Virus record (IMG/VR): IMGVR_UViG_3300020042_009419
Span: 1 to 22,741 of that record
Length of the DNA stretch: 22,741 nt
Direction: 5' to 3' (one strand)
Origin: a virus
Taxonomy: Duplodnaviria > Heunggongvirae > Uroviricota > Caudoviricetes
Part shown: positions 11,349-16,141 of the stretch, piece after piece
Layout of the letters: the number at the start of each line of letters is the position of its first letter
Position numbering within the stretch: the stretch's first letter is position 1
Notes under the pieces: model-generated
What the model was told of the DNA's origin: nothing
The model's database searches: none
The model's input: only the letters and a program-made list of their open reading frames with translations
Program-made: the position numbers and the translations under genes

Positions 11349-12049
11349 TTGATTGTGCCTGTGTGATACACAGCACCGGATATGATTGGCAGTATGTGGA
11401 ACGACTCTACAACATGCTGGTGCGTGTGTTCCCTCATGGCATACGCATGCATGTGTACACCGAGCATGACAGATCAGTTCCGCCACACATGATCAAACAT
11501 GTGCTGGATGACTGGGGCATGGGCGGTCCCAAAAAGTCCTGGTGGTACAAGATGCAGTTGTTCAATCCTGAGCACTTTGCCGGAGACCTGTTGTATCTTG
11601 ATCTTGATGTGGTGGTGGCACGTGAACTGGACTGGGTCACGGCCCTGAACACCAGTTACTTCTGGGGCATACGGGACTTTAGATATCTGCAACGACAGAA
11701 CTCAACCACACTCAACTCCAGCATGATGTGGTGGAATGTGTCCAAGTTTTCTTGGATCTGGAACGATCTTTTGACCAAAGACATTCGGCAAGTGGCCAAG
11801 CAGTTTCCCGGAGATCAAGATTATCTAGGTCATGTGCTGGATGTAAATCAACGTAGATTCTTTGAGGACAAGCGTGTGGAAAGCTACCGCTGGCAATGCC
11901 TGGATGGCGGATTTGACTTTCAGCGCCGATTGCATCGCCGCCCTGGTGCCGGAGTTGCCATTGCCAACGATACTGCCCTGGTGGTTTTTCACGGACTCCC
12001 CAAACCGCATCAGGTCACAGATCCCACCATTGCTGAACTTTGGCGCTGA
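11312..12049 (+). CDS. GT-A fold glycosyltransferase (GT8-like)
   Basis: CACVIHSTGYDWQYVERL, WWYKMQLF, DxD motif LYLDLDVVV, NSSMMWW, GDQDYL, VVFHGLPKP. Confidence 0.8.
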   Translation: MAKKNRTSTDGIVDCACVIHSTGYDWQYVERLYNMLVRVFPHGIRMHVYTEHDRSVPPHMIKHVLDDWGMGGPKKSWWYKMQLFNPEHFAGDLLYLDLDVVVARELDWVTALNTSYFWGIRDFRYLQRQNSTTLNSSMMWWNVSKFSWIWNDLLTKDIRQVAKQFPGDQDYLGHVLDVNQRRFFEDKRVESYRWQCLDGGFDFQRRLHRRPGAGVAIANDTALVVFHGLPKPHQVTDPTIAELWR

Positions 12050-12050
12050 A

Positions 12051-12079
12051 TTGACCTTTATTGCTCAAAATGCTATAAT
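12051..12079 (+). promoter_or_regulatory. sigma70-type early promoter P1
   Basis: TTGACC-17 bp-TATAAT with extended -10 TG. Confidence 0.9.
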
Positions 12080-12106
12080 ACACACTTAGTAACACAGGAG
12101 CCAACT

Positions 12107-12367
12107 ATGTCTACAATTTATAGCGCAAATATTGCAAAAGCCAAAGTCATTTACTACAAAGACAAAGAGACATACAAAATTATTTTTGCTTTTAATGTAC
12201 ACAGGAAAGTAAAAGACAACGGCGAGATTGTTCACATGTTTCCTACTCAAGCAAAATGTGCTTATGTCAGCGGAGACATCTGCTACGAAACACTTCAAGC
12301 AGACAAAGAACGTATTATTGCACAAGCCAAACAGACAATGCGCACAGATAACGTGGAATTTGTATAA
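12107..12367 (+). CDS. Hypothetical protein (86 aa), early cassette
   Basis: Own promoter P1 and AGGAG SD; no recognisable domain. Confidence 0.85.
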   Translation: MSTIYSANIAKAKVIYYKDKETYKIIFAFNVHRKVKDNGEIVHMFPTQAKCAYVSGDICYETLQADKERIIAQAKQTMRTDNVEFV

Positions 12368-12377
12368 TTTTGCAGTG

Positions 12378-12401
12378 TAATGGGCATTCGGTTGCCCATT
12401 A
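12378..12401. other. Perfect 9-bp inverted repeat overlapping the -35 box of P2
   Basis: TAATGGGCA (12378-12386), loop TTCGGT, TGCCCATTA (12393-12401); no U-tract follows. Confidence 0.7.
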
Positions 12402-12420
12402 TTCACCATTGTGCTATAAT
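12392..12420 (+). promoter_or_regulatory. sigma70-type early promoter P2
   Basis: TTGCCC-17 bp-TATAAT with extended -10 TG; a variant copy of the repeat. Confidence 0.8.
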
Positions 12421-12447
12421 ACACACATACACAGCAAGGAACTGATC

Positions 12448-12798
12448 ATGCAAGATACAATGACCCGCACTGAAGAACTGCACAGCATCTTCTGGGATAT
12501 GTACAAAGACGCTCATGGTTTCCGTCCTCGTCACGTGGACACTACGGGTTGGACAGAGGCTGAATTCAATCAGGAGTTTGAGCACCTGTCCCGCATGATC
12601 CAGCACAACGAGTGTGAGCGCAAGATCTCTGAAGAAAAAGCAGCTCACGAGTTTGAGATGCGAGTGCAGAGCATCATTGCTTGCGGTGCTGAGGATCGTG
12701 ACATGGCCATGCGCTGGATACACGAAGCTGAACAGACTCGCGGCGACAACGACTACCTTGCTTACACTCTGGGCTTGCCTTATCGTTATTTCAAGTAA
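12448..12798 (+). CDS. Hypothetical protein (116 aa), early cassette
   Basis: Start moved to ATG 12448, after P2 and AAGGA; contains FWDMYKDAHGFRPR; function unknown. Confidence 0.85.
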   Translation: MQDTMTRTEELHSIFWDMYKDAHGFRPRHVDTTGWTEAEFNQEFEHLSRMIQHNECERKISEEKAAHEFEMRVQSIIACGAEDRDMAMRWIHEAEQTRGDNDYLAYTLGLPYRYFK

Positions 12799-12810
12799 TA
12801 GGAGAAGAAA

Positions 12811-13056
12811 ATGATTGATACCGTCCAAACAGTAGAATTTCAGGGCATCACCTACAATGCCTCCCATGGTAGCCCATTTGATCGCGGCTCAGCAGACAGC
12901 TACTACGGTCGAGCACAAGATCCCCACAAGTACCCCAATGGTACCGGCAATGCACCTCGTGTGGAAGGTTCCGACATGACCCTGGCAGAGATGCGTGAAT
13001 ACTACCGGGGCTATGAGTACAATCAAGAGTCCGGCGAGCGAAAACGGTACGATTGA
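12811..13056 (+). CDS. Hypothetical protein (81 aa), early cassette
   Basis: AGGAG SD; HGSPFDRGSADSYYGR motif; its stop TGA lies inside the P3 -35 box. Confidence 0.85.
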   Translation: MIDTVQTVEFQGITYNASHGSPFDRGSADSYYGRAQDPHKYPNGTGNAPRVEGSDMTLAEMREYYRGYEYNQESGERKRYD

Positions 13057-13081
13057 CCTTTATTCACCCAAATGCTATAAT
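13053..13081 (+). promoter_or_regulatory. sigma70-type early promoter P3
   Basis: TTGACC-17 bp-TATAAT with extended -10 TG. Confidence 0.9.
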
Positions 13082-13109
13082 ACACACATACGCAGCAACA
13101 AGGAACGAT

Positions 13110-13304
13110 ATGATTCATGACTACGGAATGTTTACTGATGCGGGCAACCAAGCAGTAGAAAGCATTGTGATGCTGAAGTTTCAACGTCAACTCAGTTGGC
13201 CCACCGTCCAAGCCATGCTGGCTGCACTGGCACTGGAAGAAGTCTATTCCGAAGCAGTAGACACCGCTGTACGTGAAGCAGTTTACACAGCCTGCTTCGA
13301 TTGA
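13110..13304 (+). CDS. Hypothetical protein (64 aa), early cassette
   Basis: Start moved to ATG 13110, after P3 and AAGGA; its stop TGA lies inside the P4 -35 box. Confidence 0.8.
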   Translation: MIHDYGMFTDAGNQAVESIVMLKFQRQLSWPTVQAMLAALALEEVYSEAVDTAVREAVYTACFD

Positions 13305-13329
13305 CCTTTATTCACCGAAATGCTATAAT
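13301..13329 (+). promoter_or_regulatory. sigma70-type early promoter P4
   Basis: TTGACC-17 bp-TATAAT with extended -10 TG. Confidence 0.9.
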
Positions 13330-13355
13330 ACACACATAGCAAAAAGGAGCTGATT

Positions 13356-13469
13356 ATGATGGTACAAGATCGCAAAACTGGTGAATGGTACAACCCAGAG
13401 CTGAGATTCCAAGAAATTCTTGCCCAGCATTGGTTTATTGCTATTATAAAACGGCTAGCTAACAAATAA
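13356..13469 (+). CDS. Small protein, 37 aa (MMVQDRKTGEWYNPELRFQEILAQHWFIAIIKRLANK)
   Basis: Not in the ORF track; dedicated promoter P4, AAGGAG SD, and the ORF fills the unit up to P5. Confidence 0.75.
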   Translation: MMVQDRKTGEWYNPELRFQEILAQHWFIAIIKRLANK

Positions 13470-13475
13470 CAGGAT

Positions 13476-13504
13476 TTGACCTTTATTCACCGAAATGTTA
13501 TAAT
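13476..13504 (+). promoter_or_regulatory. sigma70-type early promoter P5
   Basis: TTGACC-17 bp-TATAAT with extended -10 TG. Confidence 0.9.
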
Positions 13505-13530
13505 ATACACTTAGCAACAAAGGAAACACC

Positions 13531-13689
13531 ATGCAAGATTTACAGACACAAGAACAGCGTTTGGACAATGCAATGCTTAAAGTGCAAGTTGTACTCAACG
13601 AGATGTTTCTAGACCAGAATGACGAAGTGCAAGACGCTTTTAACAAGTTTGTGCTAGCCTACAAAGCAGCCTTAAGCGCCCGTTATTAA
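13531..13689 (+). CDS. Small helical protein, 52 aa (MQDLQTQEQRLDNAMLKVQVVLNEMFLDQNDEVQDAFNKFVLAYKAALSARY)
   Basis: Not in the ORF track; dedicated promoter P5, AAAGGA SD, and the ORF fills the unit up to P6. Confidence 0.78.
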   Translation: MQDLQTQEQRLDNAMLKVQVVLNEMFLDQNDEVQDAFNKFVLAYKAALSARY

Positions 13690-13705
13690 CAACACTTTGG
13701 CGCAT

Positions 13706-13734
13706 TTGACCTTTATTCAGAGTTCTGCTATAAT
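13706..13734 (+). promoter_or_regulatory. sigma70-type early promoter P6
   Basis: TTGACC-17 bp-TATAAT with extended -10 TG. Confidence 0.9.
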
Positions 13735-13764
13735 ACTATTTTAACGCACAAAAAGGAGCCAACC

Positions 13765-14793
13765 GTGAGTGCAATTCGAATCGTTAGTGGTGAGTATCGT
13801 AACAAAAAAGTTAGCAATGCTACATTCAGCCTAGTAAAGGGATTCCAAACTGGATCCAAAGGCGGATTTGTTACTGTAAAAAGTAATGGACATTTTGGTC
13901 CTGAGTTTGACGTTGTTCGCATTCGTGTAAATAACATTTCTGACATTGAATACGTAAATGGAGTAGACCCTGTGACAGCACATTCACCGCAGATTGAAGT
14001 TGCAAAACACACAGAAACTGAAGAACAGGCAATGACTCGAATTCGCGAGCGTTTTGAAATTCTTACAGAAATGACCAAGGCAGCAACAGCCGGCGACATT
14101 CGTGCCATGATTGTGTCAGGTCCTCCAGGCGTGGGCAAGAGCTTTGGCGTGGAACTGGAAATTGACAAGGCCACCATGTTTGATAAACTGGCGGGCAAAC
14201 GGCTTCGTGCAGAAGTTGTCAAAGGTTCAGCCACCCCAATTGGCCTGTATCAGACTCTGTACAAGTACTCAGATGAAAACTGTGTGCTGGTGTTTGATGA
14301 CTGTGACTCAATCCTGTTGGATGACGTTGCACTGAACTTGCTGAAAGGTGCCCTGGACTCAGGCAAGAAGCGTAAAATTAGTTGGTTGAGTGAAAGCTCG
14401 AGCCTGCGCCGTGAAGGCATCCCAGACAGTTTTGAATTCAAAGGCAGTGTGATCTTTATCACCAACCTGAAGTTTGACAAAATGAAATCGCAAAAATTGC
14501 GGGATCACCTGGATGCACTGCAAAGTCGCTGCCATTACCTGGACTTGACGCTGGACACCATGCGTGACAAGATTCTGCGTATCAAACAAATTGCCAGCGA
14601 TGGCGTGTTGTTTGCAGACTACGACTTTGAGCAGTGCCAGCAAGACGACATCATTGAGTTCATGAACACCAATCAGACTCGACTGCGTGAAATGAGCCTG
14701 CGCATGGCGCTGAAGGTGGCGGATCTTGTCAAGAGCTTTCCGGCAAAATGGCGCTTGATGGCAGAGACCACATGCATGAAGCCAGCACAATGA
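13765..14793 (+). CDS. P-loop NTPase (AAA+-like) with a small N-terminal domain
   Basis: GTG start after AAGGAG; Walker A GPPGVGKS, Walker B VLVFDDCD, VIFITN, ALQSRCH; tandem TGA TAA stops. Confidence 0.85.
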   Translation: MSAIRIVSGEYRNKKVSNATFSLVKGFQTGSKGGFVTVKSNGHFGPEFDVVRIRVNNISDIEYVNGVDPVTAHSPQIEVAKHTETEEQAMTRIRERFEILTEMTKAATAGDIRAMIVSGPPGVGKSFGVELEIDKATMFDKLAGKRLRAEVVKGSATPIGLYQTLYKYSDENCVLVFDDCDSILLDDVALNLLKGALDSGKKRKISWLSESSSLRREGIPDSFEFKGSVIFITNLKFDKMKSQKLRDHLDALQSRCHYLDLTLDTMRDKILRIKQIASDGVLFADYDFEQCQQDDIIEFMNTNQTRLREMSLRMALKVADLVKSFPAKWRLMAETTCMKPAQ

Positions 14794-14796
14794 TAA

Positions 14797-14866
14797 GAGT
14801 TTTCTGGGCCTAGGTTGGCTCCTGCCCAGATTTCACAGTCGCCCCTAAAAAGGCGACTGTTTTTTT
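14797..14866 (+). ncRNA. Candidate 3'-UTR regulatory RNA (anti-RBS hairpin plus terminator)
   Basis: Stem TCTGGGC (14803-14809) / GCCCAGA (14824-14830) encloses GGTTGGCTCCT (14813-14823), the exact reverse complement of 13754-13764. The function is inferred. Confidence 0.4.
14835..14866 (+). terminator. Rho-independent terminator
   Basis: ACAGTCGCC / GGCGACTGT 9-bp stem, 8-nt loop, then a T run to 14866. Confidence 0.9.
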
Positions 14867-14893
14867 GACTTTTGTATAGATGTGTGTTACTAT
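14865..14893 (+). promoter_or_regulatory. sigma70-type promoter, probably producing a leaderless mRNA
   Basis: TTGACT-17 bp-TACTAT with extended -10 TG; ATG at 14901 is 7 nt downstream with no SD; the -35 overlaps the terminator T run. Confidence 0.7.
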
Positions 14894-14900
14894 ATACAGT

Positions 14901-15449
14901 ATGACATCTTTCATTCCCAATCGACCAGTAATAATAGAATCACCTAGAGGACTATATCATTGGGCTCGTATTTTTAATCGATTACAAAGAAACTTTTTTG
15001 TGGAATCAGTGCAACTCAGAAGAGAAAAACAGATTGAAGATTTTATAAAGCTCAATGGTTACAAAAGAGTAAAATTTAAAACGGACACCGATGTATTCAC
15101 TGAAATTGTTGATGTAATACAATGCGGCAAGAGTTCAGAAGCAGAACTAGTTGTCATAACTGATCAAAAATTCAGCAGACACCCGTGTACGGTATTGATC
15201 GAACAAATAAAAAATCAATTAGAACGTTGTTCTCAATTGTATCTATGTCTTAACAGACACTATGTCAACATTGACAACAGTTATTGTGATGCTGCCCTTG
15301 ATCAGAATTTCAATTTAGCTATTTCGCAATGGCTTAAAAAACAATTGCCTGGTTATGATATTGTGGATCTGAGTCTAGACTACCTGGACTGTGGAACAGC
15401 GTTTACCTGGGCAATACCAGACAGGCATTTTTTTATTAGAAAATTATGA
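14901..15449 (+). CDS. Hypothetical protein (182 aa)
   Basis: Start moved to ATG 14901 to fit the promoter; AT-rich; 4-nt overlap with the next gene. Confidence 0.75.
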   Translation: MTSFIPNRPVIIESPRGLYHWARIFNRLQRNFFVESVQLRREKQIEDFIKLNGYKRVKFKTDTDVFTEIVDVIQCGKSSEAELVVITDQKFSRHPCTVLIEQIKNQLERCSQLYLCLNRHYVNIDNSYCDAALDQNFNLAISQWLKKQLPGYDIVDLSLDYLDCGTAFTWAIPDRHFFIRKL

Positions 15450-16141
15450 GCAAAATTATTGAATTTTTTGACCAGGCTGTTGAAAAAAGCAACTGGAAAA
15501 CACAATATATTCGATATAGATTAGGCCGACTCAAACATCAGTATTGGCTGTGGAATAGAAAAAATCTAACTCGTGCAATCATTGATGAGTATGATTATGC
15601 AATAATGAAAAATTGTCAACCAGGGCGTACTGCATTTTTTGGTAGTGCAGGATATTACATACGAGATATATTTCCTGATGTACACGTGATTGAGATGCAC
15701 CCGGTGGTCAAAACCTTTTACCCTGACGCTTATATTTGTACTGATAGATCGATGCTGCCAACGGTAGTGCCATTTCTAGTAGACAATTTTGTTGTGGTAA
15801 ACAATCGTGCAGACCATTGGGTAACTGTACACGGGTTAACAGAACACCTACGCAACTACTCATCAGTGATGAATCCAGGTTGCAGAGTTTTCTACAGTTT
15901 TAGAGACACACAAATACATGTTAATCGACTGACTACTGACTTAGAATCTCACTTTTTGGATTGGGCAAAATCCTTGAAACATATTCTTGGGCTAGAGTTG
16001 GTATGGCACAGTGTTGATTTTACCAAAAAACTTCCTGATTCCAATGGATACTATGATCAACTTGAAAACCCAGATACCACTAACGGCAACTTGAAATTTT
16101 GGTTTGTATATAAAGGAACACCATGGACACCAACTCTTTGA
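15446..16141 (+). CDS. Hypothetical protein (231 aa)
   Basis: Long coupled ORF, AT-rich; no motif that can be confidently named. Confidence 0.8.
   Translation: MSKIIEFFDQAVEKSNWKTQYIRYRLGRLKHQYWLWNRKNLTRAIIDEYDYAIMKNCQPGRTAFFGSAGYYIRDIFPDVHVIEMHPVVKTFYPDAYICTDRSMLPTVVPFLVDNFVVVNNRADHWVTVHGLTEHLRNYSSVMNPGCRVFYSFRDTQIHVNRLTTDLESHFLDWAKSLKHILGLELVWHSVDFTKKLPDSNGYYDQLENPDTTNGNLKFWFVYKGTPWTPTL

Follow-up and report, generated by a model that had tools for sequence, protein, structure and literature searches.

The window analysed here, meaning the whole stretch of 22,741 nucleotides, forms the opening 22.7 kb of a viral contig of 94 kb in IMG/VR (CheckV completeness 27%). Since related contigs reach 342-349 kb at a completeness of 95-100% (one with terminal repeats), the source is an uncultured freshwater giant phage of ~350 kb; a megablast search of GenBank phages returned no close relative. 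A promoter scan revealed seven strong sigma70-type tandem early promoters, mostly TTGACC-17-TATAAT, at 12051-13734. Behind each early promoter there is a small ORF, except that the last promoter serves instead the gene of an AAA-type ATPase, which is 42% identical to its homologue in Pseudomonas phage PA5oct. This last promoter, kept at the equivalent position in relatives, places the ATPase ribosome site within a ~23-nt 5′ UTR. The terminator search found only one intrinsic terminator in the early unit, downstream of the ATPase gene, and none between the promoters and there; all seven nested transcripts should therefore share the same ~70-nt tail, if they end where predicted. The features of the ATPase cistron and of its 3′ end are as follows.

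13706-13734, plus strand: ATPase promoter, sigma70-type, TTGACC-17-TATAAT (promoter scan, 11/12 matches), the last of seven.
13754-13767, plus strand: ATPase translation initiation region, with Shine-Dalgarno sequence (SD) AGGAG at 13754-13758, spacer CCAACC at 13759-13764 and GTG at 13765-13767.
13765-14796, plus strand: AAA-type ATPase gene, 342 aa, phrog_1250 (function unknown), with tandem stops TGA (14791-14793) and TAA (14794-14796).
14803-14830, plus strand: hairpin 1, a 7-bp stem of 14803-14809 (T14803-C14809) with 14824-14830 (G14824-A14830) around a 14-nt loop (14810-14823).
14813-14823, plus strand: anti-ribosome-site (anti-site) GGTTGGCTCCT, in the 3′ part of the hairpin-1 loop and reverse-complementary to 13754-13764 at every position.
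14835-14867, plus strand: intrinsic terminator, a 9-bp GC-rich stem (hairpin 14835-14860) with an 8-nt loop and a T7 run.

The setting resembles the PeSL promoter-terminator cassettes of T4-type phages, which are recombination-prone regulatory cassettes (PMC2839356, PMC4122927): a terminator stem-loop is followed directly by an early sigma70 promoter (14835-14893), the T-run of the terminator overlapping the -35 box (TTGACT, 14865) of that promoter, and early promoter cassettes are repeated, here as seven in tandem. The PeSL description, however, does not include an anti-ribosome-site hairpin. Elsewhere in the unit, between the first cassette ORF and the next promoter, another hairpin (12380-12401; AATGGGCA, loop TTCGGT, TGCCCATT) holds the -35 box TTGCCC (12392) of that promoter in its 3′ arm, which is a PeSL-like layout. 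The gene that starts at ATG 14901, 3′ of the terminator (window 14865-14903), encodes 182 aa with no family match; its promoter, TTGACT-17-TACTAT, is followed by 7 nt and the ATG, with no SD, so that the mRNA appears leaderless. An ATG 5-7 nt past the -10 box, behind the terminator, is found in many relatives as well (L004, L009, L035, L049, L050, L054).

Assembled contigs from four lake or freshwater metatranscriptome runs (four studies) match the early operon with 92-100% identity. They cover 11900-14863 and almost nothing past 14864; as assembled contigs carry no information on ends, strand or level, expression and termination are hinted at only weakly, if at all, by the fall in coverage past the terminator. 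The matches also suggest that phages of this group are active in lakes.

The initial annotation of the window had pointed to the segment between the ATPase stop and the terminator, where it described a 7-bp stem enclosing 14813-14823 and proposed that the enclosed sequence pairs with the ribosome-binding sites of early genes, in the first place with that of the ATPase itself. Our sequence check agrees with the stem and with the pairing: the ATPase site AGGAGCCAACC (13754-13764) matches the anti-site in 11/11 Watson-Crick pairs, with a duplex energy of -22.2 kcal/mol. Lying between the stops at 14791-14796 and the terminator at 14835-14867, the anti-site belongs to the 3′ untranslated part of the mRNA as delimited by the predicted transcript ends. 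The tail folds locally into hairpin 1 and the terminator hairpin (z = -4.1); in the MFE fold of the isolated module AGG 14812-14814 pairs with CCU 14821-14823, which leaves 5 of the 11 anti-site nucleotides weakly sequestered. None of the Rfam 15 covariance models matched 11500-15500 on either strand at E <= 1. In the 94-kb contig AGGAGCCAAC occurs in three copies only, namely two ribosome sites and the inverted copy at 14813-14823. Read on the minus strand, the motif runs into TAG and has no start codon within range, which bears out the earlier view that it is not the ribosome site of an antisense gene.

The second of the two ribosome sites, and a further one that pairs less well, belong to other early genes:

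12095-12106, plus strand: ribosome site upstream of ATG 12107 (first cassette gene), CAGGAGCCAACT, which also pairs near-perfectly with the loop.
13345-13355, plus strand: ribosome site of a 37-aa ORF (ATG 13356), AGGAGCTGATT, a weak partner (7 Watson-Crick and 4 G-U pairs, -14.5 kcal/mol).

The pairings listed by the initial annotation for these and the remaining early sites were likewise reproduced. Site 12096-12106 forms 10 Watson-Crick pairs and one G-U pair (exact run of 11 when the extending pair C12095-G14824 is counted; -20.1 kcal/mol), although it may be a mere paralogous copy of the same cassette. At 12437-12447, for which one mismatch had been noted, there are 7 Watson-Crick pairs, 3 G-U pairs and 1 mismatch. 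Before the starts at 12811, 13110 and 13531 pairing is largely confined to the SD core, at -6 to -9 kcal/mol versus -22 kcal/mol for the ATPase site. When the 38-nt UTR was shuffled, an exact run of at least 11 to any of the seven early sites arose in 30 of 20000 trials (p ~0.0015). With G-U pairs allowed, the plus strand holds 60 matches of 10/11, fewer than the mean of 91 in shuffles; because such matches are common by chance, the G-U-rich ones at 13345 and 12437 carry little weight. The early ribosome sites are, moreover, paralogous cassette copies, and together with the frequency of G-U matches this means that the window alone does not prove function.

We therefore rely on relatives for what the window cannot provide. 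Three scans of IMG/VR with ATPase proteins yielded 228 loci with 155 unique ATPase genes (72-89% identity), and for 139 of the 155 unique loci a terminator was found downstream; these 139 form the covariation set. In almost all of them the two-hairpin 3′ module is kept, and its single-stranded part complements the ribosome site of the ATPase gene of the same locus. Between that site and the element ahead of the terminator, the longest exact run reaches 11 nt in 30 loci, 10 nt in 31 and 9 nt in 47, thus 9-11 nt in 108/139; in the remaining loci it is 8 nt (9 loci), 7 nt (16) or at most 6 nt (6). The sequence of the site is not constant. At least seven distinct ribosome-site sequences occur, each with its own matching 3′ sequence, the two changing together between lineages:

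Site GGAGCCAAC, 3′ element GTTGGCTCC.
Site GGGCTAGAAA, 3′ element TTTCTAGCCC.
Site AGGAGCTAGA, 3′ element TCTAGCTCCT.
Site TGGAGCAACA, 3′ element TGTTGCTCCA.
Site GGAGCTAAC, 3′ element GTTAGCTCC.
Site GGAGCAA, 3′ element TTGCTCC.
Site ACACGGA, 3′ element TCCGTGT.

In the GGGG class the SD core itself has changed from an A-U to a G-C pair, and in the AGGAGCTAGT-ATG class the complement, interrupted by one bulged base, extends past the start codon as far as codon 2. On the ATPase tree class switches are scattered among the GGAGCCAAC lineages. GGAGCC in the site and GGCTCC in the tail occur together in 89/91 loci, and the tail motif is never found alone. Among eight phylogenetically independent pairs, six changed in the same direction and none in the opposite one (sign test, p = 0.031), and the duplex energies of cognate pairs were better than those of permuted pairings in 20000/20000 permutations. 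Exceptions with a poor match are few (L225/L226, L095, L116). Covariation between the loop and the ATPase ribosome site, which the initial annotation had named as its decisive check, is thus present among the 139 relatives, in at least seven sequence classes. Mismatches in cognate pairs favour G-U over A-C (16:4 and 248:39), a skew that is explained by the G/U-rich composition of the anti-site; by the same comparison, mismatches at the sites of other genes look random.

The hairpin that presents the anti-site evolves as an RNA helix. In a register-consistent alignment subset of 35 sequences, compensatory changes were seen at 6/7 pairs of the hairpin-1 stem and 94.7% of cells were paired; 0/500 shuffles equalled the real alignment in paired fraction, in the count of compensatory pairs or in covariation score. 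RNAalifold on the mixed alignment, in which hairpin-1 stems of unequal length are misaligned, recovered the terminator only. The stems are wholly different among lineages (CTGGGC/GCCCAG, AGAGTCGC/GCGACTCT, CGGATAGCC/GGCTATCCG, GTTCGGG/CCCGAAC). The terminator helix is 100% paired in relatives, with compensatory changes at 5/9 pairs. Two architectures exist: the anti-site lies on the 3′ side of the hairpin-1 loop in 98 unique modules and just 5′ of hairpin 1 in 22, and it is mostly unpaired in both. In some lineages (L208, L070, L079, L215 and their relatives) each module has two anti-SD segments aimed at overlapping parts of the ATPase start region, CTCCTTTTT 5′ of hairpin 1, which is the complement of AAAAAGGAG, and GGTTGGCTCC in the loop, which is the complement of GGAGCCAAC.

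The long-range duplex is also favoured thermodynamically. In the fold of the full 1125-nt ATPase mRNA of the window, all 11 long-range pairs are part of the MFE structure, with a mean pair probability of 0.98, a figure to be read with the caution that folding programs are unreliable over 1 kb and that translating ribosomes would disrupt a long-range fold. Across 20 representatives of different classes the full-length MFE fold contains the complete duplex in 14 and lacks it in 6; shuffling the anti-site abolished the duplex in most of the 14. Together, the loop-site covariation and the dominance of this duplex in the predicted mRNA fold uphold the proposal that a 3′-terminal RNA element has been selected to pair with the ATPase site.

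Which ribosome site is the target can be read from the same loci. In nearly every relative the ATPase site is the best match among the ribosome sites of its transcription unit, and the sites of other early genes usually match at the GGAG/SD core only. The module lies directly behind the ATPase gene in 22/127 unique modules, and in 105/127 at least one small ORF stands between them; these intervening ORFs total up to 1.5 kb, and the displaced module still tracks the ATPase site. The paired run ends -2 to +1 nt from the start codon in 106/127 unique modules. The element is thus, as judged from sequence, specific for the ATPase start region and not a general early-gene switch, and the ATPase initiation region at 13754-13767 is its predicted target. 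In the window, the first cassette gene nonetheless shares the target sequence. The part of the initial annotation that extended the switch to other early genes is accordingly not supported, since the element in relatives follows the ATPase site and the other sites are mostly SD-core matches.

The ORFs between the ATPase gene and the 3′ module are small and hydrophobic in L007, L017, L023 and many other loci. They start at, or a few bases from, the ATPase stop (TGAnATGG, TAATGG), which suggests translational coupling.

The module appears to be a singular element of its genome. The 94-kb contig and a complete 347-kb relative each yielded a single terminator module of this sort. Non-coding sequences that complement the start of a gene and lie downstream of that gene were, in a genome-wide search, no more numerous than in controls. 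One candidate anti-site, a complement of 9 nt (extendable to ~15 nt) to the start region of the gene at 62626-63867, located 1.7 kb further downstream at contig position ~65569, was rejected: an ATG follows it on the minus strand, and it serves as ribosome site for a minus-strand gene whose leader is paralogous. Among more distant phages, the homologues in Straboviridae (Cronobacter LPCS28, Vibrio ValKK3) showed no complementarity. The PA5oct homologue (L231, MK797984.1 248735-249950) has the ribosome site AGGAGTAGCATTT-ATG and, just past the stop, a hairpin with ATGCTACT as its 3′ arm, which complements AGTAGCAT. A run of this length, 8 nt, would be expected ~0.05 times by chance. PA5oct, Paride and 30-3 are identical at the 8-nt match region and hence carry no covariation information, and no PA5oct-like contigs were found in IMG/VR.

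Full-length hok mRNA of the plasmid R1 hok/sok system is a well-known message whose 3′ end pairs with its 5′ region, making it translationally inert. The hok 3′ end pairs with the extreme 5′ end (tac) and not directly with the SD, trimming of the 3′ end activates the message, and the system includes the antisense RNA Sok and a toxin product. The term fold-back inhibition (fbi-tac) is attested for this arrangement (PMC3562002). The phage unit resembles hok in that the 3′ end of an mRNA pairs with the 5′ region of the same mRNA, but it shows neither a toxin ORF nor a Sok-like antisense RNA: the target is a 342-aa AAA ATPase, and no antisense promoter or ORF was found at the site. We do not, on this ground, place it with the hok/sok type.

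A closer parallel is icaR of Staphylococcus aureus, where an anti-SD motif in the 3′ UTR prevents the initiation complex from forming and gives rise to a substrate of RNase III (Ruiz de los Mozos et al. 2013, PMC3868564). In both cases the SD region of an mRNA is paired by a pyrimidine-rich anti-SD motif from the 3′ UTR of that mRNA, a pairing that for the phage was found in silico, by folding and covariation. Lowered translation and an RNase III substrate would be predicted for the phage by analogy; in five related phage records no homologue of RNase III (PF14622) was found. The two differ in several respects. icaR, a chromosomal gene for a regulator, has a 3′ UTR of ~390 nt in which the motif, UCCCCUG, is short, whereas the phage 3′ UTR is ~70 nt and its complement runs through the spacer to the start codon, which makes it gene-specific. 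The phage anti-site, unlike that of icaR, lies in or beside a terminator-proximal hairpin at the end of nested transcripts from seven promoters, and the evidence for the phage case is evolutionary and thermodynamic. We use icaR-type for a mechanistic class, not for a homology family.

Gill et al. (2025 preprint, PMC12697547) showed for Bacillus subtilis that long-range sequences resembling the anti-SD (aSD-like sequences), hundreds of nucleotides downstream, form base pairs with the ribosome site in vivo, so that initiation is inhibited and decay is promoted. Those were synthetic 8-mers, of a kind depleted from natural genes; the phage anti-site, in contrast, is positively maintained and co-evolves with its target. 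The other phage route known to inactivate early messages at the SD, cleavage of GGAG ribosome sites by the T4 endoribonuclease RegB (PMC3014915), differs in that a protein enzyme acts there on many early genes, whereas the module described here is an RNA element of one operon.

Because icaR (PMC3868564) and the long-range aSD-like sequences (PMC12697547) provide two experimental precedents for repression, we consider it probable that the 3′ module is a conserved anti-ribosome-site RNA which folds back, 3′ to 5′ as in icaR, to occlude the ATPase translation start and attenuate its use. Ribosomes would load on the ATPase site while transcription is still in progress. Once the last ~70 nt were made, the anti-site, which complements the SD and spacer of the ATPase gene and in some lineages its start codon too, would fold back across ~1.05 kb in the phage studied here and across up to ~2.6 kb in relatives with inserted ORFs. 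The resulting duplex of 7-14 bp would compete with binding of the 30S subunit, so that less ATPase would be translated, and, as with icaR and the aSD-like sequences, the untranslated mRNA would probably be exposed to decay. On this model pairing would occur in vivo, would act mainly in cis and, by analogy with the characterised cases, would repress the message and not stabilise it. A possible rationale is that the ATPase cistron, lying on all seven nested transcripts, might otherwise be over-expressed.

A further-reaching version of the fold-back model, which we put forward only tentatively, is that a widespread clade of freshwater giant phages builds a translation limiter into an early mRNA and that the message carries its own clock, or a lock that depends on its translation history: it would be translatable until its 3′ end folds back, with no need for a protein or a separate antisense gene, the tail perhaps acting also in trans on look-alike early sites, and it would represent the first natural 5′-3′ UTR translational switch of a phage.

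Action in trans could also be the main role of the module. An RNA of ~65-70 nt, comprising hairpin 1 and the terminator and released by processing or surviving decay, would then serve as a dose-dependent feedback sRNA for ATPase sites on other mRNAs and for similar early sites such as 12096. In 3′UTR-derived sRNAs the seed usually lies within or next to a hairpin, and a terminator hairpin ending in a U-tail comes after it. The module has this layout, with a terminator and a conserved seed that is largely unpaired in both architectures, and the second site of the window (12095-12106) pairs with it almost perfectly. GTTT, which resembles an RNase E site, stands 7-30 nt upstream of the anti-site in 38/69 unique modules (55%) as against 12% of random windows; the enrichment, however, comes mostly from one related class (in the window the place is 14798-14803). 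The discrete fragment itself is a candidate, the ends of which metatranscriptome contigs cannot show. Other early sites in relatives do not track the element, and cis pairing already dominates the predicted fold. We regard a mainly trans-acting sRNA as unlikely, though cis and trans action may coexist.

Still less probable, in our estimation, is that pairing protects or activates the message, either as a 5′-3′ clamp shielding the SD or the mRNA ends from nucleases or by bringing the stop close to the start and so aiding re-initiation. For a clamp there is a suitable threat in T4, where RegB cuts the GGAG ribosome sites of early mRNAs and RNA structure protects against it (PMC3014915). RegB (PF10715) was not found in the 94-kb contig or in four related genomes that are 95-100% complete, which weighs little against the clamp, since control genomes were also silent. 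Re-initiation would suit the flank-type modules, in which the anti-site lies 0-8 nt past a stop codon, within reach of a terminating ribosome, but over all modules the distance from stop to anti-site is broad (0-80 nt). Moreover, occlusion of SD and start codon is repressive in all characterised cases.

That the inverted repeat works at the level of DNA, as a recombination or inversion site or a two-site operator, or is a chance product or relic of a ribosome-site cassette, is very improbable, even though promoters and ribosome sites recur in this region as cassettes like the PeSLs, for which recombination is known (PMC2839356, PMC4122927), and the ratios of G-U to A-C mismatches are compatible with a strand-symmetric constraint: at least seven different sequence pairs have stayed reverse complements, which neither chance nor a relic can explain; gene orientation is constant in 139/139 loci, each with its promoter ahead of the gene and its terminator behind it, so that nothing points to inversion; every match takes in the SD and adjoins the start codon; the site sits in an RNA hairpin with compensatory changes; and no start codon follows the motif on the minus strand. 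To this we add the length of the matches. Runs of 7-11 bp are too short for homologous conversion.

On the novelty that the initial annotation had left unverified, the type of mechanism is known from icaR, hok and the B. subtilis aSD-like sequences. In the literature searched, no phage example was found of an mRNA whose 3′ end pairs with its own ribosome site, and phages go unmentioned in a 2021 review on bacterial 3′ UTRs. Natural bacterial mRNAs with such pairing are themselves very few, icaR and hok being the textbook cases. More than 100 natural variants, including compensatory switches in the SD core, now offer a ready mutational series with which the competition between long-range mRNA folding and ribosome loading can be studied. 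If the fold-back reading is true, early operons of giant phages can use RNA structure in cis, and not RegB-like enzymes, for regulation, and the phrog_1250 ATPase would be marked as a conserved, uncharacterised gene whose dosage is tightly controlled.
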